Assembly (NCBI GenBank): GCA_965116585.1
Contig: OZ220714.1
Span: forward strand, 159,651 to 223,650
Direction: 5' to 3'
Origin: Gammaproteobacteria bacterium
GTDB taxonomy: Bacteria > Pseudomonadota > Gammaproteobacteria > Eutrophobiales > Eutrophobiaceae
Length of the DNA stretch: 64,000 nucleotides
Part shown: one piece after another, positions 44,533 to 63,026 of the stretch
Layout: each line of letters opens with the position of its first letter
Position numbering within the stretch: position 1 is the first letter of the stretch
The notes under the pieces: generated by a model
The model's database searches: none
The model's input: only the letters and a program-made list of their open reading frames with translations
Told to the model about the DNA's origin: nothing
Program-made: the position numbers and the translations under genes

Positions 44533-45027
44533 GCAACGCCGCCTGAGTTCGTAAACAGGCGGGGCGCCGTCTGCGGCGCCTTGGTATTTCACGCTGAAGT
44601 CGGACAATCCCAACAGCGCGTCCTGTCCATCCTTGCCGTCCGGGAGCTGAAACGCATCTATCCCGCAGCGCTGCATGAAAAATAACTGGTCCCGCAACAC
44701 CTCCCCCACCGCGCGTAACTCTCCCCGGTAACCGTGGCGCTCGCGTAACAGGCGGGCATGGCTGTAACTGCGCCCGTCGGTAAATTTCGGAAACTCCAAC
44801 GCCACGAGTTCAAATAACTCCAGCGAACCGGACAAATCCTCAAGGCTGTCAGCGCCATTCAGGCAGACCGCGAGTTTGCCGTTATGCCGGGACAACGCTT
44901 CCCTGTGGCCGAGCCAATAATCCAGGGGCACTATCCAGTCGCCATCAGGCAATGGCTGTTCCGGCGCCGGCGCAACCGCCCGTTGCCAGGTATCTTCCAG
45001 CACTGTGCCGTGCTTAATAACCCGCAA
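44518..45027 (-). CDS. DUF934 protein (sulfite-reductase associated)
   Basis: FPKFTDGRSYSHARLLRER..Y.GELRAVGEVLRDQLFFMQRCG. Confidence 0.9.
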   Translation of the reverse strand: MRVIKHGTVLEDTWQRAVAPAPEQPLPDGDWIVPLDYWLGHREALSRHNGKLAVCLNGADSLEDLSGSLELFELVALEFPKFTDGRSYSHARLLRERHGYRGELRAVGEVLRDQLFFMQRCGIDAFQLPDGKDGQDALLGLSDFSVKYQGAADGAPPVYELRRRCSTTD

Positions 45028-46708: not shown

Positions 46709-46895
46709 GATGCTGCAAACAGCCCTGAGATAACAAAAGGCTGGCAAGGATAGCAGAGAGGTCTTATGAAGAAAAGTGCTTAATTTGACTATCTATATGC
46801 AGAACAGTTATATAGAGACTCGAGGTTCAAAGACTGACCCGGCAGGGCCAGGTCAAGAATCTGCTGATAAAGGCTCCTGCTTGCTCTCCCCCCGA

Positions 46896-48941
46896 TTAAT
46901 CCTCCTCATCCCTGGGTTTGTGCGCCGCGATCAGTTCTTTCTGGGTCTTGGCCGGTACCGGGTCGTAGTGGCTGAAGCTGAGCGAATAGGAACCCACCCC
47001 GCCGGTCATGGACTTCAGTTGGGACTGGTAATTGTCCAGTTCACCCAACGGCACGGTGGCGGTGATGGTGGACATGCCGCCGGCCAGGGACAAGGTGTTG
47101 CTGATACGCCCGCGCTTGCCGGAGATGTCCGCATTGATGTCACCCATGGCTTCATTAGGCGCGGTGACGTTGATGTCCACAATCGGCTCCAGCACCACCG
47201 GCCTGGCCTTGTGAAACGCGTCAAGAAACGCCTTCTTGCCGGCGGCGATGAATGCCACTTCCTTGGAATCAACCGGGTGATGCTTGCCGTCATACACGGT
47301 CACCCTGATGTCCTGCATGGGGTTGCCGGACAAGGCGCCCTGCTCCAGCGCCTGTCTAATGCCTTTCTCCACCGCCGGGATCAGTGGTTTGGGGATCACG
47401 CCACCCACGACTGCGTCCACAAACTCAAAACCTTCGCCGCGTGACATCGGTTCGACTTTCAGGAACACCTCGCCGAACTGGCCGGCGCCGCCGGTCTGTT
47501 TCTTGTGCCGGTGATGGCCTTCCGCCCTGGCGCTGATGGTTTCCTTGTAAGCGATCTTCGGTGGCCGGGTCGTGACCTCCACGTGGTAACGATCCTTCAG
47601 TTTCTCCAGCATGATACGCAGGTGCAGCTCGCCCATGCCGCGGATGACGGTTTCGTTGGTGCTGGCGTTGTGTTCCATCCGAAAGCTCTGGTCTTCCGTC
47701 TCCAGCTTGCGCAGGGAGTCTGAGATCTTCTGCTCATCGCCCCTGCTCTTCGCCTGAATGGCCAGGCCGTACATGGGCGCAGGCATGTTGACGGCTTGCA
47801 GGTGTACCTGGTCTTCGTCATGGGAATCGTGCAACAAGGCATCGAAATGAATCTCATCGATTTTGGCCACGCCGCAGATATCACCGGGTACACCCCGGCC
47901 AATTTCCTGATGCTCCTTGCCTTGCAGTTGCAACAGGTGCCCGACCTTGAACGGCTTGCGCCCGGCGCCGATATATAACTGGCTGTCCTTGGTTACCGTT
48001 CCCTGGTGTATCCTGAATATACCCAGCTTGCCCACAAACGGATCGATGTTGACCTTGAAGACATGGGCAATCACATGCCCGTCCGGGTCCGGAGAGACAT
48101 CCAGCCGTAGCGCAGCGTCACCCTCGCCCTTGAATACCGGAGGCGGGTTGCCCTCGCCCGGGTTCGGCATCAGCCTGGCAAACACGTCCAGCAATTCGCC
48201 CAGGCCCGCGCCGGTTTCCGCAGAGACAAAACACACCGGGATGAGGTGGCCCTCGCGTAACGCCTGCTCGAACGGTTCATGCAGTTGTTGCGGACTGATA
48301 TCCGCTCCCTCCAGGTATTGCTCCATCAGTTCCTCGTCCAGTTCAACCACCTGGTCGATGATATTGACGTGTGCTTCCGCTACCGAGAAAAAGTCGGTGG
48401 CGCCACCTTCGGCCTGAAAAAAGCAGTCCACCACTTTGCTGCCGCCCTCGGCGGGCAGGTTCAGGGGCAGGCATACGCTGCCGTAGGCCTCCCTGAGTTG
48501 TTGCAGGATGTCCTCGAGGTCCACGCCTTCGGCGTCAATCATGTTCACGATCAACAGGCGGTCCATGCCACGCTCCGCGGCCTGCTCCATCATCCTGCGG
48601 GTGACCATCTCCACCCCGGCCTGGGCATTGACAACCACTGCACAGGTTTCCACTGCCGGCAACACGGCCAGGGCGCGACCGATAAAGTCCGGGTAGCCCG
48701 GCGTGTCGATCAGGTTGATGTGGCTGTCGCCGTGATCCAGGCTGACCACGGCGCTGTCCAGCGAATGCTGGTGGGCTTTTTCCTGCGGGTCGAAATCACA
48801 TACCGTAGTCCCCCGCGCCACCGTGCCAATCTGGTTGATGGCCCCGGCCTTGTGCAACAGCGCCTCCACCAGCGTCGTCTTGCCCGCGCCACTCTGGCCG
48901 GTGATAGCAATGTTACGGATATTTTCAGTTATATAGGACAC
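46896..48941 (-). CDS. fusA2: Elongation factor G paralog (EF-G2/EF-G-like)
   Basis: RNIAITGQSGAGKTT, DTPGYPDF, GMGELHL, HKKQTGGAGQFG, HPVDS; lies outside the str operon. Confidence 0.88.
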   Translation of the reverse strand: MSYITENIRNIAITGQSGAGKTTLVEALLHKAGAINQIGTVARGTTVCDFDPQEKAHQHSLDSAVVSLDHGDSHINLIDTPGYPDFIGRALAVLPAVETCAVVVNAQAGVEMVTRRMMEQAAERGMDRLLIVNMIDAEGVDLEDILQQLREAYGSVCLPLNLPAEGGSKVVDCFFQAEGGATDFFSVAEAHVNIIDQVVELDEELMEQYLEGADISPQQLHEPFEQALREGHLIPVCFVSAETGAGLGELLDVFARLMPNPGEGNPPPVFKGEGDAALRLDVSPDPDGHVIAHVFKVNIDPFVGKLGIFRIHQGTVTKDSQLYIGAGRKPFKVGHLLQLQGKEHQEIGRGVPGDICGVAKIDEIHFDALLHDSHDEDQVHLQAVNMPAPMYGLAIQAKSRGDEQKISDSLRKLETEDQSFRMEHNASTNETVIRGMGELHLRIMLEKLKDRYHVEVTTRPPKIAYKETISARAEGHHRHKKQTGGAGQFGEVFLKVEPMSRGEGFEFVDAVVGGVIPKPLIPAVEKGIRQALEQGALSGNPMQDIRVTVYDGKHHPVDSKEVAFIAAGKKAFLDAFHKARPVVLEPIVDINVTAPNEAMGDINADISGKRGRISNTLSLAGGMSTITATVPLGELDNYQSQLKSMTGGVGSYSLSFSHYDPVPAKTQKELIAAHKPRDEED

Positions 48942-49022
48942 CAATGACACCTCCTCAGCTTGTTATTGTTCCTCTAACCGGAGTGTAATACTAACACATC
49001 ATCAGCGCGCATAGGAACCCGC

Positions 49023-50117
49023 TCAGCCCGGCAAATGCGCCCTCCCCAGGTACTCGTGCGACTGCATTTCCACCAGCCTGCTGGCGGTGCGCGCAAATTC
49101 CCGCGCCAGGCGTTTGCCGCCGTACAACCGCTGTGCCGGCGCCTGCGCGCTGACCAGCAATTTCACGTTGCGGTCATAGAACTCATCCACCATGCTGATA
49201 AACCGCTTTGCCCGGTCATTGTCCATATCATCCATGTGTGGAATGTCCTGCACGAAGACCGTCTGGAACTGCCGCGCAATCTCGATGTAATCAGCCACGC
49301 CACGCGGGCCGTCACAGAGTTCGGGGAAATCAAACCAGACTACGCCGGAAGCCAGTTGCCTGCATTGGAGTGTCCGGCCCGCGATCTCAATCACGGCATC
49401 GGTGTGCGCAGACCCGGAAGCAATCCTGGCAAAGCTCTGCGCCAGTTTTTGTGCGCTGTCCGCATCCGCAGGATAATGGTAAACACTGGCCTGGTCCAGG
49501 TAGCGCAGGCGGTAATCCGTGCCGGTATCGAGGTTGAGCACGCACGTATGCTGCTTGAGCAATTCGATGGCCGGCAAAAACCGTTCCCGTTGCAGCCCGT
49601 TCCAATACAGTTTGTCGGGCTGTTCGTTGGACGTGGCAACCAGGGTAACCCCCAGGCTGAACAACTCATGCAACAAGCCGCTCAACAGCATCGCATCGGT
49701 GATGTCGGAGACGTGGAATTCATCAAAACAAATCACGCTGGTGTTGCCGGCCAGCTTACGCGCCACCGTCTTCAGCGGCGCTTCCACCTCAGTGAGTTGC
49801 TTCAATTCCGCATGCACCCACTGCATATAACGGTGAAAATGCACGCGCAACTTGTCGTCAAACGGCAGGCTTTCATACAGCATATCAACCAGCCAGGTCT
49901 TGCCGCTGCCGACACTGCCCCACAGGTAAAGCCCCGTCACCGGCCGTGCAGAATGCCCGGCAAGCCGGGCAAAGAACCGGCTCAGGCGACTTGCCGAGCG
50001 CGCCGCCACCAAGGCATCGTATAACGTCTGTATCTGCTCCACCACCAGCGCCTGCGCCGGATCTGGCATAACCCGCCCCTGATCGAGGTCGGATTGGTAA
50101 CGTTGTATGGGAAACAT
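49023..50117 (-). CDS. zapE: Cell division ATPase ZapE (AFG1 family)
   Basis: GLYLWGSVGSGKT, RVHFH, CFDEF, ATSN, GLQRERFLP, RTASRLVEMQ. Confidence 0.93.
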   Translation of the reverse strand: MFPIQRYQSDLDQGRVMPDPAQALVVEQIQTLYDALVAARSASRLSRFFARLAGHSARPVTGLYLWGSVGSGKTWLVDMLYESLPFDDKLRVHFHRYMQWVHAELKQLTEVEAPLKTVARKLAGNTSVICFDEFHVSDITDAMLLSGLLHELFSLGVTLVATSNEQPDKLYWNGLQRERFLPAIELLKQHTCVLNLDTGTDYRLRYLDQASVYHYPADADSAQKLAQSFARIASGSAHTDAVIEIAGRTLQCRQLASGVVWFDFPELCDGPRGVADYIEIARQFQTVFVQDIPHMDDMDNDRAKRFISMVDEFYDRNVKLLVSAQAPAQRLYGGKRLAREFARTASRLVEMQSHEYLGRAHLPG

Positions 50118-50123
50118 GAGGAA

Positions 50124-51161
50124 TTAATCATACCCCAGGTGCTCCAGACCCGCGCGGCAGGCGCTGGTGATCGCAGCTTTATCATCTTCACCGAGCTCAT
50201 TGAACTTCGACCTTGTCTGGCGTGGCACCCTGCTTGCTTCGGCCAGCCAGGTTTCATTTTCCAGGGATGGGTCGATGAAGCGGATCAGCCTGTGCAGTTG
50301 CGCTTCCGGCGCGTCCAGCACGTCTTCAAACCTGACTGTCAACAGGCGTTCAGCAGGGAAATTTGCAAAAAAGCGCCGGGTCATGTCGATCTGCACCTGC
50401 CAGAAAGCCGCATAGTCCGGGAGCCTGGCCTGGTCATAGGGCAACCACGCGGACCTGATGAAACGGTTTGCCAGGATTTCCAGACGCGGGCCGAGCCACT
50501 CCCAGCGGCGTTGGTTGGACATCATGCGTAACGGATCCACACCCACCCCGCGCAACAGCATGACGTTTGCCAGCACCGTCCGGAACAGGTAATGCCGACT
50601 CATGGAGATCGCAGTTTCTCGCCCGTCGCGAATAATATGGATGAAGCGGGCGTCGGGAAACTCCCGTATCAGCACCGGCACAAGCAGCAACGAACTCCCC
50701 GAGCGTTCCACCCAGACCCTGCGCTCGAAGCGTTGGCACAACCACTCGAACAAATACCTGAAGTGCCGGGCCGGCGCTTGCCCGGGCTGCGCTTTCACCA
50801 CGGCTTCAAGTTCGGCAAACAACTCCTCATGGTGCTCAGTGATGTGCGGCAGTGTGGCGCACAGCAACGGTGGCACGTTCTGACGAGTGTAGCGGGACGC
50901 GGAGTCGGCAAATGGATACAGCAACTCCGGGTACTGTTCCCTCACCATCAGCCTGGTACGCTTGCTGTGCCTGCCGTAGAAATTCCACATCTGCTCCCCG
51001 CTGCGCTGCTGCCAGATCCGCCATTTCAATTCAAGAAAACCGAAAAACTCGCTCAGGCTGAGAATATCGGGATGCCGGTTGAGGACGTTGGAAATCATGG
51101 TGGAACCGCAACGTCCGGTGCCGACCACAAAGACCGGAGGGATATTCGGCAATGACCTCAC
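50124..51161 (-). CDS. PAPS-dependent sulfotransferase
   Basis: VVGTGRCGST 5'-PSB motif, IIRDGRETAISM 3'-PB motif, VRFEDV; 4-bp overlap with the upstream P450. Confidence 0.9.
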   Translation of the reverse strand: MRSLPNIPPVFVVGTGRCGSTMISNVLNRHPDILSLSEFFGFLELKWRIWQQRSGEQMWNFYGRHSKRTRLMVREQYPELLYPFADSASRYTRQNVPPLLCATLPHITEHHEELFAELEAVVKAQPGQAPARHFRYLFEWLCQRFERRVWVERSGSSLLLVPVLIREFPDARFIHIIRDGRETAISMSRHYLFRTVLANVMLLRGVGVDPLRMMSNQRRWEWLGPRLEILANRFIRSAWLPYDQARLPDYAAFWQVQIDMTRRFFANFPAERLLTVRFEDVLDAPEAQLHRLIRFIDPSLENETWLAEASRVPRQTRSKFNELGEDDKAAITSACRAGLEHLGYD

Positions 51162-52528
51162 CCGGTAAGCCCTTGGTAAGACGGCGCGTCAGGGCGTTTG
51201 CGCAAGGTAACCGGCATCCCGTGTTTCAACCGGTACAACACCAGGGTGCTTACCTCGGGAAACTCATCCGATACCAACTCAACACGCCAGCGCTGACAGA
51301 CAGTCGCCAGGGTCAATACGCCTTCCATCCTGGCAAAGTTCTGGCCAATACAACTGCGCGGCCCTCCACCGAAGGGAAGATAGGCGCGTTTTGTACGATC
51401 CTGTGCCCGGGTTTCCAACCAGCGTTCCGGTTTGAATTGCCCGGCTTGCGGATAATATTTCTCATCCAGGCGCGGCGCCAGGATCAGCGGTTGTACCACG
51501 GTACCTTGAGGAACGTGGTAGCCGCCGATGGTGCAGTCTTCCAACGCACGCCGCCCCAGCATGTGCAGGGAGGAACTGAGGCGCAGGGATTCATCGAAGA
51601 CGGCGCGGGTGTATCCCAGCTTTGCATAATCCGCTACCATCGGTGGGCCGCCCTGCAGTACCTCAGCGATTTCCTGTTCCATTTTTTCCCGCACTGCCGG
51701 GTTGCGACTGAGATGATAAAAGCACCAGCTCATGGCAGTGGCGATCGTTTCATGACCGGCCATGATCTGCATATATGCCTCATCTCTGACTTCCTCATCT
51801 GTCAATGGCTGTTCAATGCCTTCCTCATCAGTGGCATGGACCAGCAATGACACCAGATCGCCGCGTGCCTGGCCTTTTTCCCGGGCCTTTCTGATAATAT
51901 CTTTAATTGTTTCATCCAGTTTTTTGAAATACGGATTATGGCGACGGAGCCATGGCAGGGTAAATCGCAGTATCAGTTTGCCAAACGGCATATTGGTAAG
52001 GATGACGCTCCGTTCCAGCGCGATCAGGACTTCCTTGATGACATTCGGGTCAAATTCCACGTCGCTCCCGAAAAAGGTTTTGGCAATTACGTTCTGGGAA
52101 TGAGACAGCATGAGCGCTTCAATATCGGCATCATCCCCGTTGCGCCAGTCCTGCTGCAATACAACGGCTTGCTCGATCATTTTCTCCGCATAGCCTTCCA
52201 GCGCTTTCCTGAAAAAAACCGGTTGTATCAGCTTGCGCAGACGTTTATGGGCAGCTCCATCAGAGGTAATACTGGTTGGATTTTCAAATCCTGCCTTGAA
52301 AGCAGGCCCTTTTTCAAATGATGCAGCCTGTTTGACCAGCACCTGATCGATCAGGTCTGCATCGAACACAATACAAAAACGCATGAAGAACATACGAAAA
52401 CAAACTATCTCTCCATAGCGTTTACGTAGTGACAGGTAGAACCCCAGGGTATCCTGCAACCGGCGTAACAGGCTGACAAAACCAATGCCACCCGGACCAG
52501 GTGGAAGTTTTTTGGTATCGGTCATCAT
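51158..52528 (-). CDS. Cytochrome P450 (paralog A)
   Basis: PPGP hinge, AGHET I-helix, ESLR, PERW, PFGGGPRSCIG heme motif. Confidence 0.95.
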   Translation of the reverse strand: MMTDTKKLPPGPGGIGFVSLLRRLQDTLGFYLSLRKRYGEIVCFRMFFMRFCIVFDADLIDQVLVKQAASFEKGPAFKAGFENPTSITSDGAAHKRLRKLIQPVFFRKALEGYAEKMIEQAVVLQQDWRNGDDADIEALMLSHSQNVIAKTFFGSDVEFDPNVIKEVLIALERSVILTNMPFGKLILRFTLPWLRRHNPYFKKLDETIKDIIRKAREKGQARGDLVSLLVHATDEEGIEQPLTDEEVRDEAYMQIMAGHETIATAMSWCFYHLSRNPAVREKMEQEIAEVLQGGPPMVADYAKLGYTRAVFDESLRLSSSLHMLGRRALEDCTIGGYHVPQGTVVQPLILAPRLDEKYYPQAGQFKPERWLETRAQDRTKRAYLPFGGGPRSCIGQNFARMEGVLTLATVCQRWRVELVSDEFPEVSTLVLYRLKHGMPVTLRKRPDAPSYQGLTG

Positions 52529-52690
52529 TCCATACTCAATATCTTGTGCAACACACTCAACTATGACAGGCGGACCTGCATAGCATGCCATTGGTCTGGT
52601 ATTATGCAGTCTTTACTCCATTGGGTAAAGTTTTTATAATCAAGGCGTTCCCAGTCAGTTCCGGTCTTCACATCGGCGTCCGGCTGACGA

Positions 52691-52706
52691 GGGGGGGGGG
52701 GGGGGG
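52691..52706 (+). repeat. G16 homopolymer in the divergent P450 intergenic region
   Basis: 16 consecutive G, ending 17 nt before the P450 B start codon. Confidence 0.9.
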
Positions 52707-52723
52707 ACTCATTAATCAATCTA

Positions 52724-54112
52724 ATGTACATGAGTGAGCTCAAATCAGTGCAGGTGGAGCGACCAGTGAATAAACGACTACCCCCAGGGCCGAAAGACTT
52801 GGGCCTGTTACGCCTGGTAAAGATTTTCTCCAACAAGTTCCAGCTATTTGAGCAGCTCAGGAAGGACTATGGTGAGGTCGTGTACTACAGGGTACTGCGT
52901 TTCAGGCATTGTTTGTTGTCTGATCCCGACCTGATACGTGAAGTGCATGTTGCCAGGCGTTCATCTTTTCATAAAGCACCCTTCCAAAAGAATCTACTGA
53001 TTTTTTCCAATCCAACCTCGGTGACGGCCGACGGGCAAGACCACGTCCGGCAACGCAAGCTGATCCAGGGATCATTTCGTCATGCGCGCATCATGGAATA
53101 CGCCAGGGAAATGAATGTGGAAATTAACGCATTGCAGTCTCAATGGCGCACCGGAGATACGTATGACCTTGCTCATGAAATGCATAAACTGGCATTGAAC
53201 ATCGTCTGTGCCACTTTTTTCGGGCGCGACATCAATATTCCAACCTCGCTTACTGAAGATACGCTGAAAACGCTGCAATGGACCGGCAAGTTGACGATAC
53301 TGCCATTCGGGTTAGGGAAAATTGTGGCGCGGCTGCCCCTGCCCGGCAACCGCTTTCGGGAGCGGACATGCAAGGCAATGGATAAACTGATTTACAAGGT
53401 GATAGAAAAAGCTCGCAACGATGAACAGCGCACAGACCTGATCTCACAACTGACACGCGCGACTGACGAAGAGGGGAAGGAACGCCCGCTGACCGATGAG
53501 GAGGTACGGGACGAAGCTTACGTGATGATAATGGCCGGACACGAAACCTCGGCAAACTCGCTTGCCTGGACGTTTTATCATTTGAGCCAAAATCCGGCTG
53601 TGCGGTTACGGCTTGAGGCTGAAGTCGACGAGGTGCTTGGTGATCGGCCACCAACGCCGGACGACTACAAAAGACTGCCCTACACCATGGCAGTGTTTAT
53701 GGAATCACTGCGCGTTGCGGCGCCAACTTATTGCGGCATGCGCAGGGCAATCGAAGACTGTGAAATTGGAGATTATTTTATCCCCAGGAATACGATAATG
53801 TGTCTCTTCTGGCGCGGGGCGCACATGAACGAGAAGTATTTCCCACGGGCGTCGGAATTTCGACCGGAACGGTGGCTGGAAGATACGGTGGAAGGTCAGG
53901 ATAATGACGCTTACTTTCCGTTTGGTGGCGGCAAGCGCACCTGTCCGGGCGCGACCTTTGCCAAGATGGAAGCCGTCCTTGCCATCGCCGTCATAGTCCG
54001 GCGTTGGCGTATCAATCCCGTGTCCGATGACTATCCGGCAGTCTCAACACTGGCCTTCTACAGGTTCAAGCACGGACTCCCGGTCACAATCGAGAAACGA
54101 CAGATAACATGA
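52724..54112 (+). CDS. Cytochrome P450 (paralog B)
   Basis: PPGP, AGHET, ESLR, PERW, PFGGGKRTCPG. Confidence 0.95.
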   Translation: MYMSELKSVQVERPVNKRLPPGPKDLGLLRLVKIFSNKFQLFEQLRKDYGEVVYYRVLRFRHCLLSDPDLIREVHVARRSSFHKAPFQKNLLIFSNPTSVTADGQDHVRQRKLIQGSFRHARIMEYAREMNVEINALQSQWRTGDTYDLAHEMHKLALNIVCATFFGRDINIPTSLTEDTLKTLQWTGKLTILPFGLGKIVARLPLPGNRFRERTCKAMDKLIYKVIEKARNDEQRTDLISQLTRATDEEGKERPLTDEEVRDEAYVMIMAGHETSANSLAWTFYHLSQNPAVRLRLEAEVDEVLGDRPPTPDDYKRLPYTMAVFMESLRVAAPTYCGMRRAIEDCEIGDYFIPRNTIMCLFWRGAHMNEKYFPRASEFRPERWLEDTVEGQDNDAYFPFGGGKRTCPGATFAKMEAVLAIAVIVRRWRINPVSDDYPAVSTLAFYRFKHGLPVTIEKRQIT

Positions 54113-54152
54113 GCAGCCCCGTATTACAGGACTGCTTGTGCGGGGCGCCGTA

Positions 54153-55341
54153 ATGACCACACTGGAAGTACCTGCTGCTTACCGTCCCGGTTATGCACGC
54201 GCATGCCAGGTTAACCCGGAACTGGCGCGCCTGTATATCAAACATACCACTGTTGGCGACCCGCTTGCTGATGCGCTGATGCAAGCCCTGTCCGGGCTGA
54301 GCCCGCAGGAGGAGAACCGTCTTATCATGGCCGGGATGCACAATGACAAGCGCGTGCTGGCGCAGGCGCCTGCGCCCCTGGTCGATTTTTTTGAAGAGCT
54401 GAAACAACCCCCTCCGTGGTTTGACCCGCAGCGATTCGATGCCGGTTGCCGTACCTTTCATACGCATTCGGATTTGTTCATGCCCGCGTTTTTCCTGGTG
54501 ACAGTGCTGAACGCGACCAGCCTGATTGCCAAGTCATTCTACGCCACCGGCCGCGTGATGAGCGGTTTTGGCGCGCGTCGCATCCGCCAGAACGTCCGGC
54601 ATTTTGTGGAAATCATGCTGCCCGGCGCCCTGGAAGACCAGGGGGACGGATGGCGGTTATCCGTGCGCATCCGCCTGGTGCACGCCCGTCTCAGGAAGTT
54701 GATCAAAGAAGGAGGGGGGGGGAAATGAATGGGACGAGGCTGCATGGGGTACACCAATCAGTGCCGCAAACCTGGGGCTGGCCTCAGCCAATTTCTCCGC
54801 CACCATGTTGTTGTTCGCGCGTAAACTCGGTGCACTGATGGACCGGGAAACACGCGACAGTTTCATGCAGATATGGCGTTACGCTTCCTACCTGATCGGC
54901 ACTCCCGAAGCCCTGCTGTTTGAGGGAGACGAAGCAAAAACCCGTGAGTTCCAGCGCATTACCGACCTGTGTGAACCACCACCGTCCAAAGAATCAAAAA
55001 TCATCGCCAACGCACTGGTACATGGCCTGCCGGAAATAGCCGGCAAAATTCATCCGGCCGAGCAGGAAAAAATGATGAAACACGTATTCCGGGTGGCGCG
55101 CGCGGTACTGGGGCACAAGTTGTCAGACCAGCTTTCATTCCCCCCCTGCAATACCATAGGGTTCTTGCCAACCCTGCGCCTGCTGCGCCAGACCTACGGT
55201 CTATCCCACAAGGTCGCCCCGGACTTTGCCGACAAGTGGCGCGGTCAGAACTTTGTATTTTTGCTCGAAGCCTCCATGCTGGATGATGTCAGGTATCAAC
55301 TGCCGAACCATGTGCGGGTAGAGCATTCTATTGAGTATTAA
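54153..55341 (+). pseudogene. MpaB/DUF2236 (Lcp-like) heme oxygenase, frameshifted at a G9 tract
   Basis: ORF1 has GDPLAD, PPWFD, IAKSFYATG and VRIRLVHARLR. A second frame continues EWDEAAWGTPIS...WRYASYLIG. One extra G in 54714-54722 separates the two halves (phase variation or sequencing error). Confidence 0.8.
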
Positions 55342-55442
55342 CCTGTCATTTAACGGACAATAATGCTCCAACAAGGCCTGGCGGGGACAATCTTCATCCT
55401 GCCCATCCGTCCCCGAAATTTACACAGAAAAAGAGTATCAGG

Positions 55443-55886
55443 CTATCCCACCAATAATATCCTGGTCATTTCACCCATTAAAACCATCAGGACGGCCGTG
55501 CTCAGGCCGAATACCGTCAGACGGTGCCAAACTTGGTTATAAGTCACATGAATCAAGCTGTGGATGATGCGCAGCGCAACATAGGCCCAGGCCAGACTGA
55601 CAGTGAGACTATTGGCGCCCCCGGCAAGGTACAGCAGGATACAGACCAGGTAATACAGCACCGGCATCTCGAACAGATTGACAATGTTGCGGTTTGCCTG
55701 GGAGACATACGGCGGCACGGTATCAGGCTCGCCTACGGTGTATTCCGAGAGATCGACACCTTTGTTCAAGGACGGACTCAAGCGCCGGCAGGCCACCAGC
55801 GCCAACATGATGGCGGTCCACCAGGCCAGCGCGATCATGGGGTAGAACAGTTCCATGCCGGAATGGTACAGAATGGGATTATTCAT
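55443..55886 (-). CDS. MAPEG family membrane protein
   Basis: NIVNLFEMPVLYY, AWAYVALRIIHSLIH, R...F; AGGAGA RBS. Confidence 0.85.
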   Translation of the reverse strand: MNNPILYHSGMELFYPMIALAWWTAIMLALVACRRLSPSLNKGVDLSEYTVGEPDTVPPYVSQANRNIVNLFEMPVLYYLVCILLYLAGGANSLTVSLAWAYVALRIIHSLIHVTYNQVWHRLTVFGLSTAVLMVLMGEMTRILLVG

Positions 55887-55950
55887 GGTATATCTCCTGT
55901 GGATTGTCGTTGGTGTACACTATAGCCTTAAAAACCTGGTGGGGGTACAG

Positions 55951-56667
55951 ATGAGTACATTCGTTTTAATCCACGGCGCATTTTCCGGTGGCTGGAGTTG
56001 GGATGCGGTGCGGGGACCATTGACACAGGCCGGACACGAGGTGATTACCCCCGACCTGCCCGGCCAGGGGGATGATCAAACTCCTCTGTCTGAAGTGGGC
56101 CTGGACAGTTATTGCCAAAGGGTCATTGAAGTCCTGGACCGGCAGGCAGAACCCGTGCTACTGGTGGGTCACAGCCTGGGGGGTATCTCCATCTCCCAGG
56201 CTGCAGAACACCGGCCTGACAAGGTCAAAATGCTGGTTTACGTCGCCGCGTTCCTGCTGCCGCACGGGAGTTCGCCCAAACATTTCTGGAGCAACCAGTC
56301 CATCACCTCGCCGGTCATGAGCCATTGCGACGTCAGCGCGGACGGCGTAGTCAGCTTTCGCAAGGAGCATATCGCCGAACTTATCTACAATACCTCAGCG
56401 CCCGCCGCGGCGCAGAAAGCCGCCCACCGGCAACGCCCCATGGCGCGCAAACCCCTGGGGACACCCCTGCAACTGAGCGAGGAGAACTTCGGGCGGGTGC
56501 CGCGGGTGTATTTCGAAGCGCTGGAAGACCGGGCAGTGCCCATCGAATGCCAGCGCCAGATGGTGCAGGCCCTGCCGTGCGAGAAAGTCGTTACGTTTGC
56601 CACCGACCATGCACCCATGGCCTCCGCCCCGGAGCAGTTCGTCACGGAACTGCTGGCGCTGGCATAA
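55951..56667 (+). CDS. Alpha/beta hydrolase (methylesterase/salicylate esterase-like)
   Basis: FVLIHGA, DLPG, GHSLGG nucleophile, EDRA and TDHAP catalytic Asp/His. Confidence 0.9.
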   Translation: MSTFVLIHGAFSGGWSWDAVRGPLTQAGHEVITPDLPGQGDDQTPLSEVGLDSYCQRVIEVLDRQAEPVLLVGHSLGGISISQAAEHRPDKVKMLVYVAAFLLPHGSSPKHFWSNQSITSPVMSHCDVSADGVVSFRKEHIAELIYNTSAPAAAQKAAHRQRPMARKPLGTPLQLSEENFGRVPRVYFEALEDRAVPIECQRQMVQALPCEKVVTFATDHAPMASAPEQFVTELLALA

Positions 56668-56680
56668 CCCGCATGCCTGA

Positions 56681-57889
56681 CTAGAGCAACCAGTGCGTCG
56701 TCGGCAGATTCAGGCGCAGCTTGCCGTAAACGTCCTTGATGATCCCCTCGTGCATGGCTTCGTGCATGGACATGGCGTTAATGTCGCGCTGGTAGCGTTG
56801 CATGCGGCTGCGCTCATGCAGGGTTGAACCACCGGAGTCCTGGAACAGGAGATTCACCACCTCCCGGCACATGTGCATAGCCTGCACGCCATACAGCCTG
56901 ATACGCGCCCGGTCTGCGGCGCTCAATATCCGGGTATTATTGATGGCGGCCTCGTAACACAGGTCACAGGCATGGTCGGTCAACAACCTGGCCGCGGCCA
57001 GTTTTGCCGTGGCGTCGGCCAGCGTTTGATGGGTTGCGGGCAGGTGTTTTTTGGGGACTTTGTCGGTATAGACCATGGGCCGGTCCGAACGGGTCTGCAA
57101 CAACTCCTCGTAATATTCCAGCGCACCGGTTGCCGCGCCCAGGGTGGTGCCGGCGCTGAGTGACAGTACCAGCAAGGGCGCGAACGGCGCCCGGTACAGC
57201 AAGGGCCGCCACGTTCCCAGCTTGTGCGCCAAAGCGGTTTCCGCCTTCAGCACCCTGTGTTCCGGCACAAAGCATTCATCATTTTTCAGGCGCACACTGT
57301 TGCTGCCGGTCGCGCGCAGGCCCGTTACGTGCCAGTCATCGTTGCGCGCGATGTCTTCCGGCGGCACCAGGAAAAACGCCTTGTCGTGGCCGGGCGGCAG
57401 GCCGGGCAGTTGCACACCCAGCACAAACCAGTCCGCATGATGGCAGCCGGAACCAAACGGCCAGATACTGTTCTTCAACAGGTAACCGCCGTCGACGCGG
57501 GTCGCCGTGCTGCGATCCGGCAGGATGCCACTGAGGCCGGCATTGGGGTCGGCGCCGAACACGTCCTGCTGGGCCTGTTCCGGAAACAGCGCCACTACGA
57601 AGGTATGGCAGCACATCACGCTGTACACCCAGCTTGAGGAAGGACAGCCTTTGGCAAGCTCGGCGGCAATGCGCCAGAAATAACGGGGATGCAGTTCATA
57701 GCCGCCAAAGCGCGCCGGCGTGTAGGCGCGCAACAGATCAGCATCCTTCATGGCGCGGAACGATTCCGCATGGATATGCCGCTGTTGCTCGGCCGCGCCC
57801 GCCCTGGCGTCCAGGTCAACGGCGATAGCCCTGGCCCGATCAATCAGGGTTGCAGCCAGCTCCCGTTGATCATCCGGGACGGTGTTCAT
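56681..57889 (-). CDS. Two-component flavin-dependent monooxygenase, oxygenase subunit (acyl-CoA dehydrogenase fold, HsaA-like)
   Basis: P.RFGGYE, CPSSSW, WPFGSGC, DDWHVTGLRATGS, FVPEHR, MQRYQRD. Confidence 0.85.
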   Translation of the reverse strand: MNTVPDDQRELAATLIDRARAIAVDLDARAGAAEQQRHIHAESFRAMKDADLLRAYTPARFGGYELHPRYFWRIAAELAKGCPSSSWVYSVMCCHTFVVALFPEQAQQDVFGADPNAGLSGILPDRSTATRVDGGYLLKNSIWPFGSGCHHADWFVLGVQLPGLPPGHDKAFFLVPPEDIARNDDWHVTGLRATGSNSVRLKNDECFVPEHRVLKAETALAHKLGTWRPLLYRAPFAPLLVLSLSAGTTLGAATGALEYYEELLQTRSDRPMVYTDKVPKKHLPATHQTLADATAKLAAARLLTDHACDLCYEAAINNTRILSAADRARIRLYGVQAMHMCREVVNLLFQDSGGSTLHERSRMQRYQRDINAMSMHEAMHEGIIKDVYGKLRLNLPTTHWLL

Positions 57890-57897
57890 GCCGCGGT

Positions 57898-58134
57898 TCA
57901 GAGCGCGTTGTGCGAACCGTCACAGAGATGGCCGTTGCCACTGCGCTTGCAACCGCACAACCACTGCGTTGCGGTCTCCGCCACCTCAAAGCGCACCGGC
58001 GTAAAGTCAGTGCCGGAATGTGACCCGTCACAAAACGGCTGATTGGCAGAACGACCGCACTTACACCAGAAATAAACCCCGGTCTCAAGCTCAATCGCAT
58101 AAGGATACTTCTGCGGGCAATCCGGATCAGTCAT
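57898..58134 (-). CDS. CDGSH iron-sulfur protein (two CDGSH motifs, MiNT/CISD3-like)
   Basis: WCKCGRSANQPFCDGSH and LCGCKRSGNGHLCDGSH. Confidence 0.92.
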   Translation of the reverse strand: MTDPDCPQKYPYAIELETGVYFWCKCGRSANQPFCDGSHSGTDFTPVRFEVAETATQWLCGCKRSGNGHLCDGSHNAL

Positions 58135-58198
58135 GATATCCCCCCCGTTGTTGGCTGTTCGACCGGAAAATCATCTCATAATGGAAGGGTTTGGGCAA

Positions 58199-58360
58199 GG
58201 AATTGAGAATTAGGAATTGGGAATGAGGTCAAGTGGAGCGTTGTCATTAAATACACAGCCGCCGCAGGCGGCACATTCATTCCTAATTCTTAATTTTTAA
58301 TTCCTAATTCTTAACCCCATTCCTAATTCCTAATTCCTAATTCCTAATTCCCAATTCCCA
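58199..58360. repeat. Inverted heptamer tandem-repeat element C
   Basis: GGAATT(A/G) arm at 58199-58225, palindrome gccgcc-gca-ggcggc at 58258-58272, two TAATTCC arms at 58279-58360. Confidence 0.9.
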
Positions 58361-59108
58361 ACCCCCTTCTTCTGATCTCAAACAGACACACCCCCGTAGC
58401 AACAGACAGATTCAGGCTTTCCACCGAGCCGTGCATCGGAATTTTTACCAGGTGATCGCAGTGCTCTCGGGTGTTGCGGCGCAGGCCAGCGTGTTCCGAG
58501 CCCATGACTAGGACCAGGGGGAAGTGGACGTCAAGCTCGTACAAGCTGGTCCCGGTGCTGCCGCTGGCGCCGATGACCTGACAGCCGGCGTCGCGTAACC
58601 GGCGCAAGCTGCGCGCCAGGTTGGTGACCGTGATGATGTTGATACTTTCCATGGCGCCGCTGGCTACCTTGCTCACGGTGGCGTTCAGGGGTGCGCTGTG
58701 GTCTTTGGGCAGGATCACGGCTGCCGCGCCGGCCGCGTCTGCGCTCCTGATGCAGGCGCCGAGGTTATGCGGGTCCAGTACCCGGTCCAGCGCCAGGATG
58801 AGCGCGGGCTGTTCCGTCAGTCCGGCACACAGGTCATCCAGGGTCATACGTTGTTCCCGGCTGTCCGTCCGGCATCTTGCCGCGATGCCCTGGTGCTTGC
58901 CGGCGCCGGTCAACCTGTCAAGTTTTGGCCGGGCAATGGGCTGAACCGAAATGGAATTGCGCTCACATACGCCCAGCAAGTCATCCAGTTTTGCGGAGCG
59001 CCCCCTGCCGGTGGCGATATACACCTCCAGCACGTCATGGGAACGTCGCGCCAGCACATGCCGGACGGCATGGTAGCCACAGATGAACTCGATATTTTTC
59101 GTCCGCAT
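58344..59108 (-). CDS. rlmB: 23S rRNA (Gm2251) 2'-O-methyltransferase
   Basis: HQGIAA, DPHNLGACIRSADAAG, MGSEHAG, IPMHGSVESLNLSVA. Confidence 0.95.
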   Translation of the reverse strand: MRTKNIEFICGYHAVRHVLARRSHDVLEVYIATGRGRSAKLDDLLGVCERNSISVQPIARPKLDRLTGAGKHQGIAARCRTDSREQRMTLDDLCAGLTEQPALILALDRVLDPHNLGACIRSADAAGAAAVILPKDHSAPLNATVSKVASGAMESINIITVTNLARSLRRLRDAGCQVIGASGSTGTSLYELDVHFPLVLVMGSEHAGLRRNTREHCDHLVKIPMHGSVESLNLSVATGVCLFEIRRRGLGIGN

Positions 59109-61243
59109 TACCCGACGTATTCAAAATCGATTTTCTTCTCATCCACTTTAACGGCCAGTACGCTGATTCTGATCCGGTCGCCCAGGAAGAATTTCCGGCC
59201 CGAACGTTCGCCTGACAGCGAATGGGCAATGGGATCAAAGTGATAGTAATCAGTGGGCAGCGCGGAGATATGTACCAGGCCCTCAACGTAAATATCATCC
59301 AGTTCGACAAACAGGCCGAAGCCGGTGACACCGGAGATAATCCCGTTAAACACCTGGCCGGTCTTGTCCAGCATAAACTCACACTTCATGCGGGCGCTGA
59401 CGTCACGCACCGCCTCCTCGGCCCGCCGCTCGGTCATGGAACAATGCGCACCTAGCTGGTGTACGTCGTTTTTGTCGTACTCATAAGCTGCATTTTCCAC
59501 GATGTGGCGCAGCGCGCGGTGCACCAGCAGGTCGGGATAACGCCGGATCGGCGAGGTAAAATGCGTGTAGTGCTCGAAGGACAGGCCGAAATGACCCAGA
59601 TTCCTGCCCTCGTACACGGCCAGTGGCATACTGCGCAACAACACCGTCTCGATCAGGTGTTTATCTTCCCGGGTTCTGACCTGTTCCAGCAGGTTGGCAT
59701 AATCTCCGGCCGTGGGATCCAGGCCGCCCCCCAGTTCCAGGTTGAAATCGGCCAGGAACTTGCCGAGGTCGTTGAGTTTTTCCTGGTTCGGCGTGCCGTG
59801 ATTGCGAAACACACAGGGAACCTGCTGCTCCAGCAGGAACTGTGCCACCGAGACATTGGCCGCCAGCATGAATTCCTCGATGATTTTGTGGGCGTCATTG
59901 CGTTCCAGCGCGCGGATATCGCTCACCCCGCCCTGCTCATCAAAATACATCCTGATTTCGCTGGAAGAAAAATCCAGTAACCCCTGCTGCTGCCTGTGTG
60001 CATTCATGAGCCGGAACAACTCGTGCATGTCCCTGAGGTGCGGCACAAGGGAGTTATATTTTTCCTGCCCATTATTTTCGGGCGCATTGTTACCGGCCAG
60101 GATGTCGCTGACCTGGTTGTAGGTAAGGCGGGCGCTGGAGCGGATCACGGCCGGGTACAGACGGTATTTTTTGATTTGTCCAAGCTTGTTGATACGCATA
60201 TCGCATACCATGGCCAGCCGGTCGATATCCGGTTTCAGGGAGCAGAGATCGTTGGAAAGCAGTTCCGGCAACATGGGCACAACCCGGTTGGGGAAATACA
60301 CCGAATTGCCCCGCTCATGGGCAACCCGGTCCAGGGCCGTCCCCGGTTTTACATAATGTGACACGTCCGCAATGGCAACCACCAGACGCCATTGCCGGGC
60401 CTGTTTCTCACAGTAAACCGCGTCATCGAAATCCCGGGCGTCTTCGCCGTCTATGGTCACCAGCGGCAGGTCACGCAGGTTCTCCCTGCCCTTAAGCGCC
60501 TGTTTCTGTTGCAGGCCGGCCAGTTCGTCAGTCACGTCGTCCGGCCACTGGTGGGGAATTTGGTAGGCGCGTATGGCTATTTCCGTGGCCATGTCAACGG
60601 AGCCGGCATGGCCCAGCACCTCGATTACCTTGCCCATGGGTTGGGTGTGCTTGTCGGGCTGGTGCGTGATCTCGACGACGACAAATTCGCCGGACTTGGC
60701 CTTTTTGCGCTTTTGCGGCGGCACCAGGACATCCTGGTGCAGATGTTTGTTGTCGGGGACGACAAACGAGACGTTGTCTTCCTTGTAGAAGCGCCCCACT
60801 ACCGAGTGGTTGACATGCTCAAGCACCTCAACGATAATTGCTTCCCGGCGATTGCGCCGGTCATAACCACCGTAACGCACCACGACGTGGTCGCCGTGCA
60901 ATACGCCACGCATCTGCTTCATGGACAGAAACAGGTCCTCACCGCCTTGATCAGGCCGGAAGAAACCGTAACCATCGCCGTGGCCGATGACGCGCCCGGC
61001 CACGAGGTCCATCTTGTCCAGCAGGCCATAGCCCTCGCGGCGGTTGCGGATAAGCTGGCCATCGCGCAACATGGCCTTGAGGCGCTTGCTCAGCGCCGAG
61101 CGCTCGGCAGAACTGGTGACCTCCAGGGCCTGTGCAATGTCCGTCAGTTGCAGCGGCACTCCCGAACGTTGCAAAAACTCCAAAATCTCAGTTCGTTCGG
61201 GGATTGAGACAAGGTACTTCTCACTACTTTTTTTCTTTCCCAT
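59108..61243 (-). CDS. rnr: Ribonuclease R
   Basis: N-terminal HTH, DGYGF, TIDGEDARDFDDA, IEEFMLAAN, YTHFTSPIRRYPDL, S1 domain. Confidence 0.97.
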   Translation of the reverse strand: MGKKKSSEKYLVSIPERTEILEFLQRSGVPLQLTDIAQALEVTSSAERSALSKRLKAMLRDGQLIRNRREGYGLLDKMDLVAGRVIGHGDGYGFFRPDQGGEDLFLSMKQMRGVLHGDHVVVRYGGYDRRNRREAIIVEVLEHVNHSVVGRFYKEDNVSFVVPDNKHLHQDVLVPPQKRKKAKSGEFVVVEITHQPDKHTQPMGKVIEVLGHAGSVDMATEIAIRAYQIPHQWPDDVTDELAGLQQKQALKGRENLRDLPLVTIDGEDARDFDDAVYCEKQARQWRLVVAIADVSHYVKPGTALDRVAHERGNSVYFPNRVVPMLPELLSNDLCSLKPDIDRLAMVCDMRINKLGQIKKYRLYPAVIRSSARLTYNQVSDILAGNNAPENNGQEKYNSLVPHLRDMHELFRLMNAHRQQQGLLDFSSSEIRMYFDEQGGVSDIRALERNDAHKIIEEFMLAANVSVAQFLLEQQVPCVFRNHGTPNQEKLNDLGKFLADFNLELGGGLDPTAGDYANLLEQVRTREDKHLIETVLLRSMPLAVYEGRNLGHFGLSFEHYTHFTSPIRRYPDLLVHRALRHIVENAAYEYDKNDVHQLGAHCSMTERRAEEAVRDVSARMKCEFMLDKTGQVFNGIISGVTGFGLFVELDDIYVEGLVHISALPTDYYHFDPIAHSLSGERSGRKFFLGDRIRISVLAVKVDEKKIDFEYVG

Positions 61244-61254
61244 TCACATATCCA

Positions 61255-61283
61255 TTGACAGCCCTTGCCCGTAACGGTAGAGT
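61255..61283 (+). promoter_or_regulatory. Sigma70-type promoter directed at tRNA-Leu
   Basis: TTGACA (61255-61260), 17-nt spacer, TAGAGT (61278-61283). Confidence 0.65.
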
Positions 61284-61314
61284 CCGTCGTTTCAAAAAAC
61301 CTGATTGTACACCA

Positions 61315-61534
61315 AGTAACCTCTAAAAATGCCATCCTTGGCATTTTTAGAGACGGAAACGAAAAAATGCGATTTTCCGTTTCCTTCGTTATTAATCACT
61401 TACGTGACCAATCGGCAGGACTGCCGATTGGCGCAGCGCAAGCTGCCCGAAGGGTGACGTTCAGGATGAACGTCACGATTAAATGGCAGCATATCCCTAT
61501 GCTGCACGGGCACCTCTAATTTTTAGAGGTGCCC
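61315..61534 (-). mobile_element. MITE copy 2 (intact, 220 bp)
   Basis: Flanked by a 4-bp direct repeat ACCA (61311-61314 and 61535-61538); reverse complement of copy 1; made of consecutive hairpins. Confidence 0.9.
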
Positions 61535-61544
61535 ACCAGATCAT

Positions 61545-61631
61545 GCCGAGGTGGCGGAATTGGTAGACGCGCTAGCTTCAGGTGTTAGTGGGGGTAACCC
61601 CGTGAAGGTTCAAGTCCTTTCCTCGGCACCA
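61545..61631 (+). tRNA. tRNA-Leu (CAG)
   Basis: Acceptor stem gccgagg/cctcggc-ACCA, D-loop TGGTAGAC, anticodon arm ctagc-tt-CAG-gt-gttag, long variable arm, GGTTCAAGTCC T-arm. Confidence 0.97.
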
Positions 61632-61637
61632 GCTGTT

Positions 61638-61727
61638 GAATTAAGAATTAGGAATTAGGAATGAACGTGCCGTCTGGTGCGGCAGTTTTTATTGCTCCAA
61701 TTCATTAACTCCTAATTCTTAATTCCC
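61638..61727. repeat. Inverted heptamer tandem-repeat element D
   Basis: gaattaagaattaggaattaggaatg, then gtgccgtctggtgcggca, then taactcctaattcttaattccc; lies between convergent tRNA-Leu and purA. Confidence 0.85.
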
Positions 61728-61730
61728 ACA

Positions 61731-63026
<1,296 letters not shown>

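Follow-up and report, generated by a model that had tools for sequence, protein, structure and literature searches.

An MpaB-family haem oxygenase and a sulfotransferase form a conserved gene pair in an accessory cassette of a Eutrophobiaceae gammaproteobacterium

The DNA analysed here, called the window, is a stretch of 64,000 nucleotides from a Gammaproteobacteria bacterium (Eutrophobiales; Eutrophobiaceae), corresponding to positions 159,651–223,650 of the forward strand of contig OZ220714.1 in assembly GCA_965116585.1; coordinates are positions in the window unless a genome or locus code precedes them, and the 3.81-Mb genome of the organism itself is coded G000. At 50124–55886 the window holds a cassette of five genes, which encode a putative sulfotransferase dependent on 3'-phosphoadenosine-5'-phosphosulfate (PAPS), two cytochromes P450 (A and B), a haem oxygenase of the MpaB/Lcp family (DUF2236) and a membrane protein of the MAPEG family. 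The conserved core of this system is the pair formed by an MpaB of a dedicated clade and the sulfotransferase, which travels across phyla. The pairing is robust and undescribed, and in the window strain the MpaB gene is interrupted by a frameshift at a poly-G tract. An original prediction, made from the letters of the window, had proposed the locus as a candidate hydroxylate-sulfate-cleave tailoring system with two branches.

Conservation of the MpaB-sulfotransferase pair

The sulfotransferase gene was sampled in 21 loci, namely the window, G006, G009, G012, an Alphaproteobacteria metagenome-assembled genome (MAG; L014), a Nitrospirales-labelled MAG (L016), a metagenome contig (L017) and 14 others (L042–L055), the latter found in 11 of the 121 genomes belonging to the order of the Nitrospirales-labelled MAG. 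The locus search gave three loci in genome contigs with a single sulfotransferase as query and one in metagenome contigs with an alignment as query, and was then extended by a survey by taxon. An MpaB gene lies within the cluster in 17 of the 21 loci and is usually located directly upstream of the sulfotransferase gene, with a gap of 11 nt at most or a 7-nt overlap in L017, L018, L042, L044, L049, L050 and L052. A P450 of the A/B family accompanies the sulfotransferase in seven loci, an Acyl_transf_3 membrane protein is encoded between MpaB and the sulfotransferase in four, and MAPEG occurs in two; an exporter adjoins the cluster in seven loci (MatE, resistance-nodulation-division (RND) with membrane fusion protein (MFP), major facilitator superfamily (MFS) or small multidrug resistance (SMR)), and cysD and/or cysNC do so in four (L043, L048, L049, L054). 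The co-occurrence of P450, sulfotransferase and MpaB in relatives, on which the original prediction depended, was thus found. A DUF1499 gene is also present beside the cluster at L048:13700-14077 and L052:8824-9186.

The MpaB proteins linked to the sulfotransferase form a clade of their own. In a maximum-likelihood tree of 29 proteins, in which the window MpaB was entered read through with an X at the break, the 17 sulfotransferase-linked rows are split from the 12 MMPL-linked or other rows at 100/99. Among the four loci outside the 17, L016 has an MMPL-linked MpaB 4 kb away, L055 a distant 221-aa open reading frame (ORF) of the MpaB family, and L053 and L054 a GPP34-P450 fusion in place of MpaB. 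The L016 protein was considered as a sulfotransferase-linked MpaB and rejected, since the tree puts it in the MMPL-linked clade.

The locus L052 (genome G545) contains a single operon in which a P450B-type gene (75% identical to B) is followed by MpaB and the sulfotransferase; judging from this order, the layout of the window looks like an L052-type operon that has undergone rearrangement and gained the P450A-sulfotransferase couple. The two separate branches originally proposed, P450 plus sulfation and P450 plus cleavage, do not agree with these data, because in other genomes the direct coupling is between MpaB and the sulfotransferase, and in L052 all of them share one operon. Moreover, equal sizes of the longest source contig across three database searches identify at least 16 sulfotransferase/P450 pairs, at least 17 sulfotransferase/MpaB pairs and at least six triples, the last including contigs of 8,662 and 12,609 bp; these size matches are an indirect proxy, and for Mb-sized contigs they do not demonstrate adjacency. 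A complex prediction for MpaB and the sulfotransferase (score 0.00, mark 0.32) is evidence neither way.

With regard to the literature, searches on DUF2236 or MpaB together with a sulfotransferase returned no paper on the pairing, the sole co-mention being a review of plant phytohormone evolution; in a bioRxiv preprint, DUF2236 serves just as a family name. Searches on marine sulfated P450 clusters gave nothing relevant by title or abstract.

Organization of the locus

The features of the locus, with their strand, are the following.

49023-50117, minus strand: zapE/AFG1, flanking core gene
50124-51161, minus strand: PAPS-type sulfotransferase, Sulfotransfer_3 (Pfam PF13469), 345 aa; 6 nt separate its stop from the start of zapE
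51158-52591, minus strand: cytochrome P450 A, 477-aa ORF (Pfam p450)
52691-52706, plus strand: G16 homopolymer between the divergent P450A and P450B genes, 17 nt upstream of the first P450B ATG
52724-54112, plus strand: cytochrome P450 B, 462-aa ORF (Pfam p450)
54138-55341, plus strand: MpaB/Lcp-family (DUF2236) haem oxygenase gene, frameshifted (from orthologue alignment)
54714-54722, plus strand: G9 tract in the MpaB gene, site of the frame break
55443-55886, minus strand: MAPEG-family membrane protein, 147 aa (Pfam PF01124)
55855-56667, plus strand: alpha/beta hydrolase, conserved neighbour outside the cassette, present beside zapE in island-free genus members
56681-57889, minus strand: HsaA/HpaH-like flavin-dependent monooxygenase with an acyl-CoA dehydrogenase (ACAD) fold, conserved neighbour outside the cassette (Pfam Acyl-CoA_dh_2)
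57898-58134, minus strand: CDGSH iron-sulfur protein, 78 aa, conserved neighbour outside the cassette (two CDGSH motifs)

The genes rlmB and rnr come after the CDGSH gene. Much of the gene description given in the original prediction stood up. The two divergent P450 genes are indeed paralogous (46% identity over 445 residues, E 1e-141) and have in common the motifs PLTDEEVRDEAY..IMAGHET and VSTL..YR.KHG.PVT; the P450A and sulfotransferase genes overlap by 4 bp, the TGA stop of the former and the GTG start of the latter forming GTGA at 51158–51161. The lower GC content of the P450 genes was borne out, the fraction of GC at third codon positions (GC3) being 0.561 in A and 0.598 in B versus 0.70–0.79 in the flanking core genes; the value for the sulfotransferase is 0.73. 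The Pfam analysis also agrees that no polyketide synthase (PKS), nonribosomal peptide synthetase (NRPS), terpene cyclase, ferredoxin or regulator domain is present in 50124–58134. In particular, the scan of the window proteins, which covered 45014–63983, detected no PKS, NRPS, terpene synthase or comparable scaffold enzyme, and none was detected among the neighbour ORFs put to Pfam in the related loci (64 of the 174 ORFs in the case of L042–L055). Two statements required correction: the gene following P450B was assigned to the right family, MpaB/DUF2236, but it is frameshifted and not intact; the genes for MAPEG, esterase, flavin monooxygenase and CDGSH protein, proposed as accessory enzymes, are all present and MAPEG belongs to the island, but the last three are part of the genus synteny.

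As for the minor proteins, MAPEG matches PF01124 with 74.5 bits (cut-off 23.4), and the best NCBIfam matches of the flavin monooxygenase are HsaA (217 bits, cut-off 450) and oxygenase components of p-hydroxyphenylacetate hydroxylase, all below their cut-offs. None of the NCBIfam models covers the sulfotransferase, MpaB, MAPEG or CDGSH proteins. A scan for sigma-70-like promoters gave three sites versus 4.1 expected by chance, and Rfam, applied to 48000–62000, gave only a tRNA-Leu and two sub-threshold matches on the repeat at 58.2 kb.

Genomic neighbourhood and probable acquisition of the cassette

The best explanation of the region 50124–55886 is a horizontally acquired accessory cassette of five genes, sulfotransferase, P450A, P450B, the MpaB gene and MAPEG, inserted in a variable spot after zapE. 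A DNA comparison of 14.5 kb around the locus with 24 relatives reveals a conserved genus synteny, made up of zapE, the hydrolase, the HsaA-like gene, the CDGSH gene, rlmB and rnr, that exists without the island. In the closest relatives, G005 and G010, zapE is directly followed by the CDGSH gene and nothing from the sulfotransferase to the HsaA-like gene is present, while other genus members have the hydrolase, the HsaA-like gene and the CDGSH gene without sulfotransferase or P450. Since the hydrolase, HsaA-like and CDGSH genes are kept between zapE and rlmB without the island, they are not accessory enzymes of the system. The interval after zapE, which in the window spans 50118–55942 and contains the island, has a length of about 0 kb in both G005 and G010; in G003, G013, G015 and G001 it measures about 1 kb in addition to the hydrolase and the HsaA-like gene, and in G008 about 14 kb. 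These differences among relatives define a variable hotspot, and the island is 50124–55886.

The distribution of the single genes is equally patchy. Among the 22 other genus genomes a close relative of P450A exists in G006 only (57–58% identity), the next-best match in the 40 relatives searched having 33% identity. The cluster of G006 is located on a different contig, beside gatBAC/mreBCD, and has the order MAPEG, MFS, RND, MFP, P450 (58%) and sulfotransferase (69%), with MpaB on the opposite strand. The MAPEG gene occurs in two of 23 genus genomes, G000 and G006, and the G006 copy, 63% identical, lies on the contig of the cluster; MAPEG is inherited along with the island in the G000/G006 lineage. 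The sulfotransferase subfamily is found in 4 of 126 family genomes including G000, all within the genus, and in none of 400 other genomes of the phylum at E<=1e-30. No signature of mobility was detected, with no integrase and with direct repeats limited to chance-like matches of 14–31 nt; the nearest tRNA gene, tRNA-Leu(CAG) at 61545–61631, is 5.7 kb from the island.

Several other observations concern the surroundings of the cassette. In organism C (X6, one of the public runs described below) most of the alpha/beta hydrolase gene is gone at 55965–56685 (a 719-nt skip with 186 other letters between), and the MAPEG region is without coverage at >=90% likeness. The intergenic segment 58186–58369, between the CDGSH gene and rlmB, is a repeat of the ATTCCTA/AATTCC type with inverted arms, and similar stretches recur elsewhere in G000 and in relatives; the read-depth bin 58186–58500 exceeds the neighbouring bins more than 100-fold and contains many joints. 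A further repeat of about 94 bp at 61314–61407, about 140 bp before tRNA-Leu(CAG), has many copies with 87–96% identity throughout the genome and the genus and looks like an element of the repetitive extragenic palindromic (REP) or miniature inverted-repeat transposable element (MITE) type.

The sulfotransferase

From its sequence and its predicted model, the 345-aa protein is assigned as a PAPS sulfotransferase that has no closely related characterised enzyme. PF13469 is matched with 90.9 bits (cut-off 27), and the GTGRCGSTM loop, which would bind the 5'-phosphosulfate, is nearly invariant in 41 homologues. The AlphaFold model (predicted local distance difference test 87.3, predicted template modelling score 0.86) is related by Foldseek with probability 1.0 to the tyrosylprotein sulfotransferases (TPST) TPST1/2, the sulfotransferase (ST) domains CurM-ST and olefin synthase (OLS) OLS-ST, Stf9 and Stf1, at 12–16% identity; at the sequence level the similarity with TPST1 is confined to the PAPS loop (33 residues, positions 6–38, E ~1e-3). 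The metagenome database contains 2576 homologues at E<=1e-5, more than 100 of which have at least 49% identity, and the sole name given by the source is 'sulfotransferase'. Among the control genomes, PF13469 has matches in Caulobacter vibrioides and Bacteroides thetaiotaomicron only.

The genome G000 encodes one adenosine-5'-phosphosulfate (APS) kinase (234 bits), which makes a supply of PAPS possible, together with about ten P450s and six other Sulfotransfer_3 proteins. Three Sulfotransfer_3 genes, with frames of 223–690 aa and unrelated to the island, are grouped within 5 kb at G000:C1:3609143-3614154.

The frameshifted MpaB gene and its poly-G tracts

An uninterrupted MpaB reading frame is absent in the window. 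The N-terminal 196 codons are read in frame 0 from 54138 to a stop at 54728, and the C-terminal 212 codons in frame +1 at 54703–55341, the break being at the G9 tract 54714–54722. The 399-aa orthologue of G006, which is intact, aligns with the two pieces placed end to end (68% and 77% identity respectively), and the G006 gene has no G tract at this site. The intact orthologue matches PF09995 with 59.4 bits; the C-terminal piece reaches 22.3 bits, slightly less than the cut-off (23), while no match is obtained with the N-terminal piece. The enzyme to which cleavage had been attributed in the original prediction is therefore out of frame in the window strain.

Public runs were compared over 48500–58500 as contigs, which drop minority variants. 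X2 and X4 derive from the same coded organism in different samples, X5 from organism B at low depth, and X6 from organism C, which differs from the window at 92 positions in 6.9 kb (about 98.7% identity). The G9 tract is unchanged in the contigs of X2 and X4, and X5 matches its region without difference; X6 is without 4 nt at 54711, and its MpaB gene is in frame. The other tract varies in length, being G16 in the window, G15 in X2 and X4, and G8 in X6. From this comparison it follows that the MpaB frameshift is real and recent and that both tracts change length between close strains. Runs of G or C of at least nine occur only 12 times in the whole genome, and two of them are at this locus. Two of the features by which phase-variable loci are recognised, a long homopolymer and a length difference between close strains, are observed, with G9 inside the gene and G16 upstream of P450B. 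The cassette is here either truncated or switched off through homopolymer slippage, which would be reversible.

A second, independent break in the same gene is present in L043 (G647), where the sulfotransferase-linked MpaB at L043:8194-9464 is divided among three frames beside an intact sulfotransferase, cysD and cysNC. Long homopolymers also exist elsewhere in G000: G17 (G000:C1:3528752-3528768) and G14 (3532343-3532356) have identical duplicated flanks, are 3.6 kb apart and lie 3 nt before an ATG, and tracts of the C20, C13 and G11 type occur at G000:C1:3467472-3467491, 3299131-3299143 and 3571481-3571491. In the genome, runs of 8–10 are depleted and those of 11–20 form a tail; the long ones may be contingency loci or hotspots of assembly error.

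The MpaB/Lcp protein family

The G006 MpaB is related to the rubber oxygenase LcpK30 (5O1L) by phmmer (E 3e-10, residues 46–282), and an Atlas structure match to MpaB-family clusters has a template modelling (TM) score of 0.90. The residues aligned to R164 and H198 of LcpK30, which we take to be an arginine close to the haem and the proximal ligand of its iron, respectively, are conserved in G006 MpaB; K167 and T168 are replaced by Q and N. H184 is invariant in 42 MpaB homologues, and the N-terminal piece of the window has the aligned histidine in RLVHARLR. The frameshift falls about 15 codons past this residue, so that the N-terminal piece alone is no whole enzyme. The N-termini of the window and G006 proteins have, by eye, no obvious stretch resembling a signal peptide. 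The Lcp rubber oxygenase is secreted and acts on extracellular polyisoprene; the substrate of the island MpaB is surely not rubber. To our knowledge, only two activities have been characterised among MpaB/Lcp-family haem oxygenases, both consisting in the cleavage of C=C bonds of isoprenoid chains.

MpaB-family genes are present in 15 of the 22 other genus genomes. A genus-wide module, observed at 12 loci (L020, L021, L023–L031, L033; L020 corresponds to G000:C1:2974471-2980549) and next to ispH in nine of them, combines MpaB with an HAE3/HpnN-like RND transporter containing a sterol-sensing domain, a LolA_like protein and a familyless protein of 423 aa. The neighbours in this module link the MpaB family of these bacteria to hydrophobic cargo.

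The cytochromes P450

Cytochromes P450 are defined by the motifs FxxGxRxCxG and ExxR and by the I-helix motif (A/G)Gx(E/D)T. P450A and P450B match PF00067 with 266.2 and 259.3 bits (cut-off 22.8), their cysteine-ligand loops are FGGGPRSCIG and FGGGKRTCPG respectively, and both contain ESLR and MAGHET. The start of P450A is likely Met23, which gives 455 aa, because this is the length of its database cluster; the cluster of P450B has 448 aa. The clade of A includes G006, P0122 (79%), P0123 (71%) and P0124, and the clade of B includes P0171 (85%) and the L052/G545 gene (75%). That the two genes arose by a recent tandem duplication was considered and rejected, since A and B belong to separate clades and each has closer orthologues elsewhere. 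P0123, of the A type, and P0171, of the B type, have the same size of the longest source contig, 7,171 bp, which indicates that the twin-P450 layout exists elsewhere.

The best-scoring solved structures are 7wzl, CYP170A1, CYP97 and CYP3A4, and the best NCBIfam models are albaflavenone monooxygenase (CYP170A1) and pentalenene oxygenase (PtlI), with 193–213 bits versus cut-offs of 700–800; these similarities give a weak hint of terpenoid-like substrates. Fusions of a GPP34/GOLPH3-like domain with a P450, of about 670–690 aa, were also noticed at G000:C1:587717-588967, L053:10557-12596 and L054:10705-12723, and P450 frames of this length recur across the genus. In L053 and L054, which belong to two distant genomes, the fusion gene is located directly after the sulfotransferase homologue.

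Proposed function and alternative explanations

The function that we favour, with slightly better than even confidence, is that of a cassette that oxygenates and then O-sulfates a hydrophobic metabolite already present in the cell, the sulfate ester being exported. The oxidise-then-sulfate part of the original prediction remains the most economical reading; the lack of a scaffold synthase, the APS kinase of the genome and the cysD/cysNC genes next to the clusters of relatives also agree with that prediction. The core pair would consist of a cytoplasmic haem-b oxygenase of the MpaB/Lcp family and a PAPS-dependent enzyme of the Sulfotransfer_3 subfamily. In the window a rearrangement appears to have split the pair, and each half would be coupled to its own P450: P450A translationally to the sulfotransferase, and P450B to the MpaB gene placed after it, with MAPEG completing the island. 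MpaB, P450A and P450B may act as oxygenases on a hydrophobic compound that the cell already makes, probably an isoprenoid or a lipid-like metabolite, and the sulfotransferase would O-sulfate a resulting hydroxyl by using PAPS. The amphiphilic sulfate ester would then be exported; relatives supplement the pair with MatE, RND, MFS or SMR exporters, with membrane acyltransferases and with a cysD/cysNC of their own. The MpaB step would be off in the window strain, because the G9 tract breaks the frame, and available in the near-identical relative in which the gene is in frame.

Several points weigh against this proposal. A dedicated MpaB is absent from four of the 21 loci (L016, L053, L054, L055) and a P450 from 14, most of the loci belong to two lineages and are hence non-independent, and the contig-size matches share the indirectness noted above. 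The MpaB gene is broken in the window and in pieces in L043, so the cassette may be decaying, and none of the public runs that include the locus is an RNA run. The family scores of the P450s are far below the curated cut-offs; nothing ties the cassette directly to isoprenoids. In addition, the characterised MpaB/Lcp enzymes yield carbonyls when they cleave C=C bonds, and carbonyls do not accept sulfate; the hydroxyl must therefore be supplied by a P450, by a reductase or by MpaB itself through another chemistry.

A detoxification of phase I/II type, in which incoming hydrophobic xenobiotics, or compounds of a host or of algae, would be oxidised by the P450s and MpaB and then conjugated by the sulfotransferase, perhaps with a MAPEG resembling glutathione S-transferases, before efflux, is rather unlikely. 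The lack of scaffold genes, a MAPEG gene inside the island, the RND+MFP, MFS, MatE and SMR pumps beside the cluster in seven of the 21 loci, the resemblance of the P450s to E-class enzymes with a broad substrate range (for instance CYP3A4 and BM3), and the patchy, accessory spread within the genus are all compatible with it. However, the tight coupling of one MpaB clade with one sulfotransferase clade across phyla suggests one defined substrate, the dedicated cysD/cysNC and membrane acyltransferases of relatives look biosynthetic, and MAPEG is found in just two of the 21 loci. The adjacent exporters, being suited to a charged end product, speak against sulfation as leaving-group activation, in which a P450-made hydroxyl would be sulfated to drive elimination or cyclisation towards an unsulfated product, as in the CurM/OLS domains, retinol dehydratase and LGS1. 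Foldseek places CurM-ST (4gbm) at rank 3 (E 2.5e-7), OLS-ST (4gox) at rank 12, and retinol dehydratase and LGS1 at ranks 26–36, but with identities of 11–14% and TM scores of 0.36–0.59; TPST, Stf9 and Stf1, which form stable sulfate esters, score equally well, and no acyl carrier protein or thioesterase is a conserved partner, which renders this explanation quite improbable.

To a non-functional remnant, in which MpaB was lost to a frameshift after acquisition and the rest is drifting, we give no more credit than to leaving-group activation. The frameshift is in the assembly and in the contigs of X2, X4 and X5, the MpaB of L043 is also in pieces, and the loss of the neighbouring hydrolase in organism C indicates a region in flux; against this, the reading frames of the sulfotransferase, P450A, P450B and MAPEG are full-length with their catalytic motifs preserved, the sole lesion is one base in the G9 tract that could revert by slippage, and a relative with about 98.7% identity is in frame. 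Less probable still is the tyrosine sulfation of a peptide or protein in the manner of RaxST or TPST, the haem enzymes acting on that same peptide. The sulfotransferase has its best matches, by sequence as well as by fold, in TPST1 and TPST2, but the sequence match is confined to the 33-residue PAPS loop (E ~1e-3), and no precursor peptide, peptidase-ABC exporter or enzyme of ribosomally synthesised and post-translationally modified peptides was seen in the 21 loci.

The proposal of oxygenation followed by O-sulfation can be extended to a more specific claim, which we regard as doubtful when taken as a whole. According to it, the MpaB-sulfotransferase cassette, to which P450s, acyltransferases, exporters and cysDNC would be optional additions, would make a new class of exported sulfated molecules derived from lipids or isoprenoids; it would be shared horizontally among marine Gammaproteobacteria, Alphaproteobacteria and relatives of the Nitrospirales-labelled MAG, its Lcp-family enzyme would perform a chemistry other than that on rubber, and in the window strain a switch of production by poly-G slippage would act through the tracts in MpaB and upstream of P450B.

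Relationship with known systems

Bacterial sulfation of small molecules is known to us from a handful of pathways, such as those of mycobacterial sulfolipids, sulfomenaquinone, Nod factors, RaxX and curacin. In this context, one MpaB/Lcp clade is locked to one sulfotransferase clade across distant bacteria, and more than 2,500 homologues of the sulfotransferase are public; the cassette is a small portable gene set in which to seek a new sulfated metabolite and a new reaction of the Lcp fold, and the window strain (MpaB off) and its relative (MpaB on) constitute a natural, ready-made pair for comparison.

The solved folds closest to the sulfotransferase are the sulfotransferase domains of CurM and of olefin synthase (4GBM, 4GOX) and the tyrosylprotein sulfotransferases (5WRI, 3AP1), with TM scores by target of 0.57–0.60; the identity is 14–16%, and the island enzyme is stand-alone, is not a PKS domain and has no peptide substrate context. 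LcpK30 (5O1L/5O1M) and the fungal MpaB' belong to the same Pfam family as the island MpaB, PF09995 (MPAB_Lcp_cat); compared with LcpK30, the island protein has about 400 aa, is coupled to a sulfotransferase and is frameshifted in the window strain. The genus-wide MpaB module contains members of the same family with about 40% identity to the island MpaB within the same genomes, G000 included; it differs in forming a separate clade (100/99), in having no sulfotransferase and in being conserved rather than accessory, and it is uncharacterised.

The gammaproteobacterial host would presumably carry ubiquinone and not menaquinone. The known system most similar in gene layout is the cyp128-stf3 pair of Mycobacterium tuberculosis, responsible for the sulfated menaquinone S881, in which a P450 gene is located immediately upstream of a PAPS sulfotransferase gene as it is here; in both cases there is no scaffold synthase, and the logic, likened through the gene layout, would be that of hydroxylation and then sulfation of an existing lipid. 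The two systems differ in that the conserved partner of the island sulfotransferase is an MpaB-family haem oxygenase, the P450 being present in just 7 of the 21 loci, and in that the predicted fold of the island enzyme is closest to TPST and CurM-ST, with the mycobacterial Stf9 and Stf1 scoring lower.

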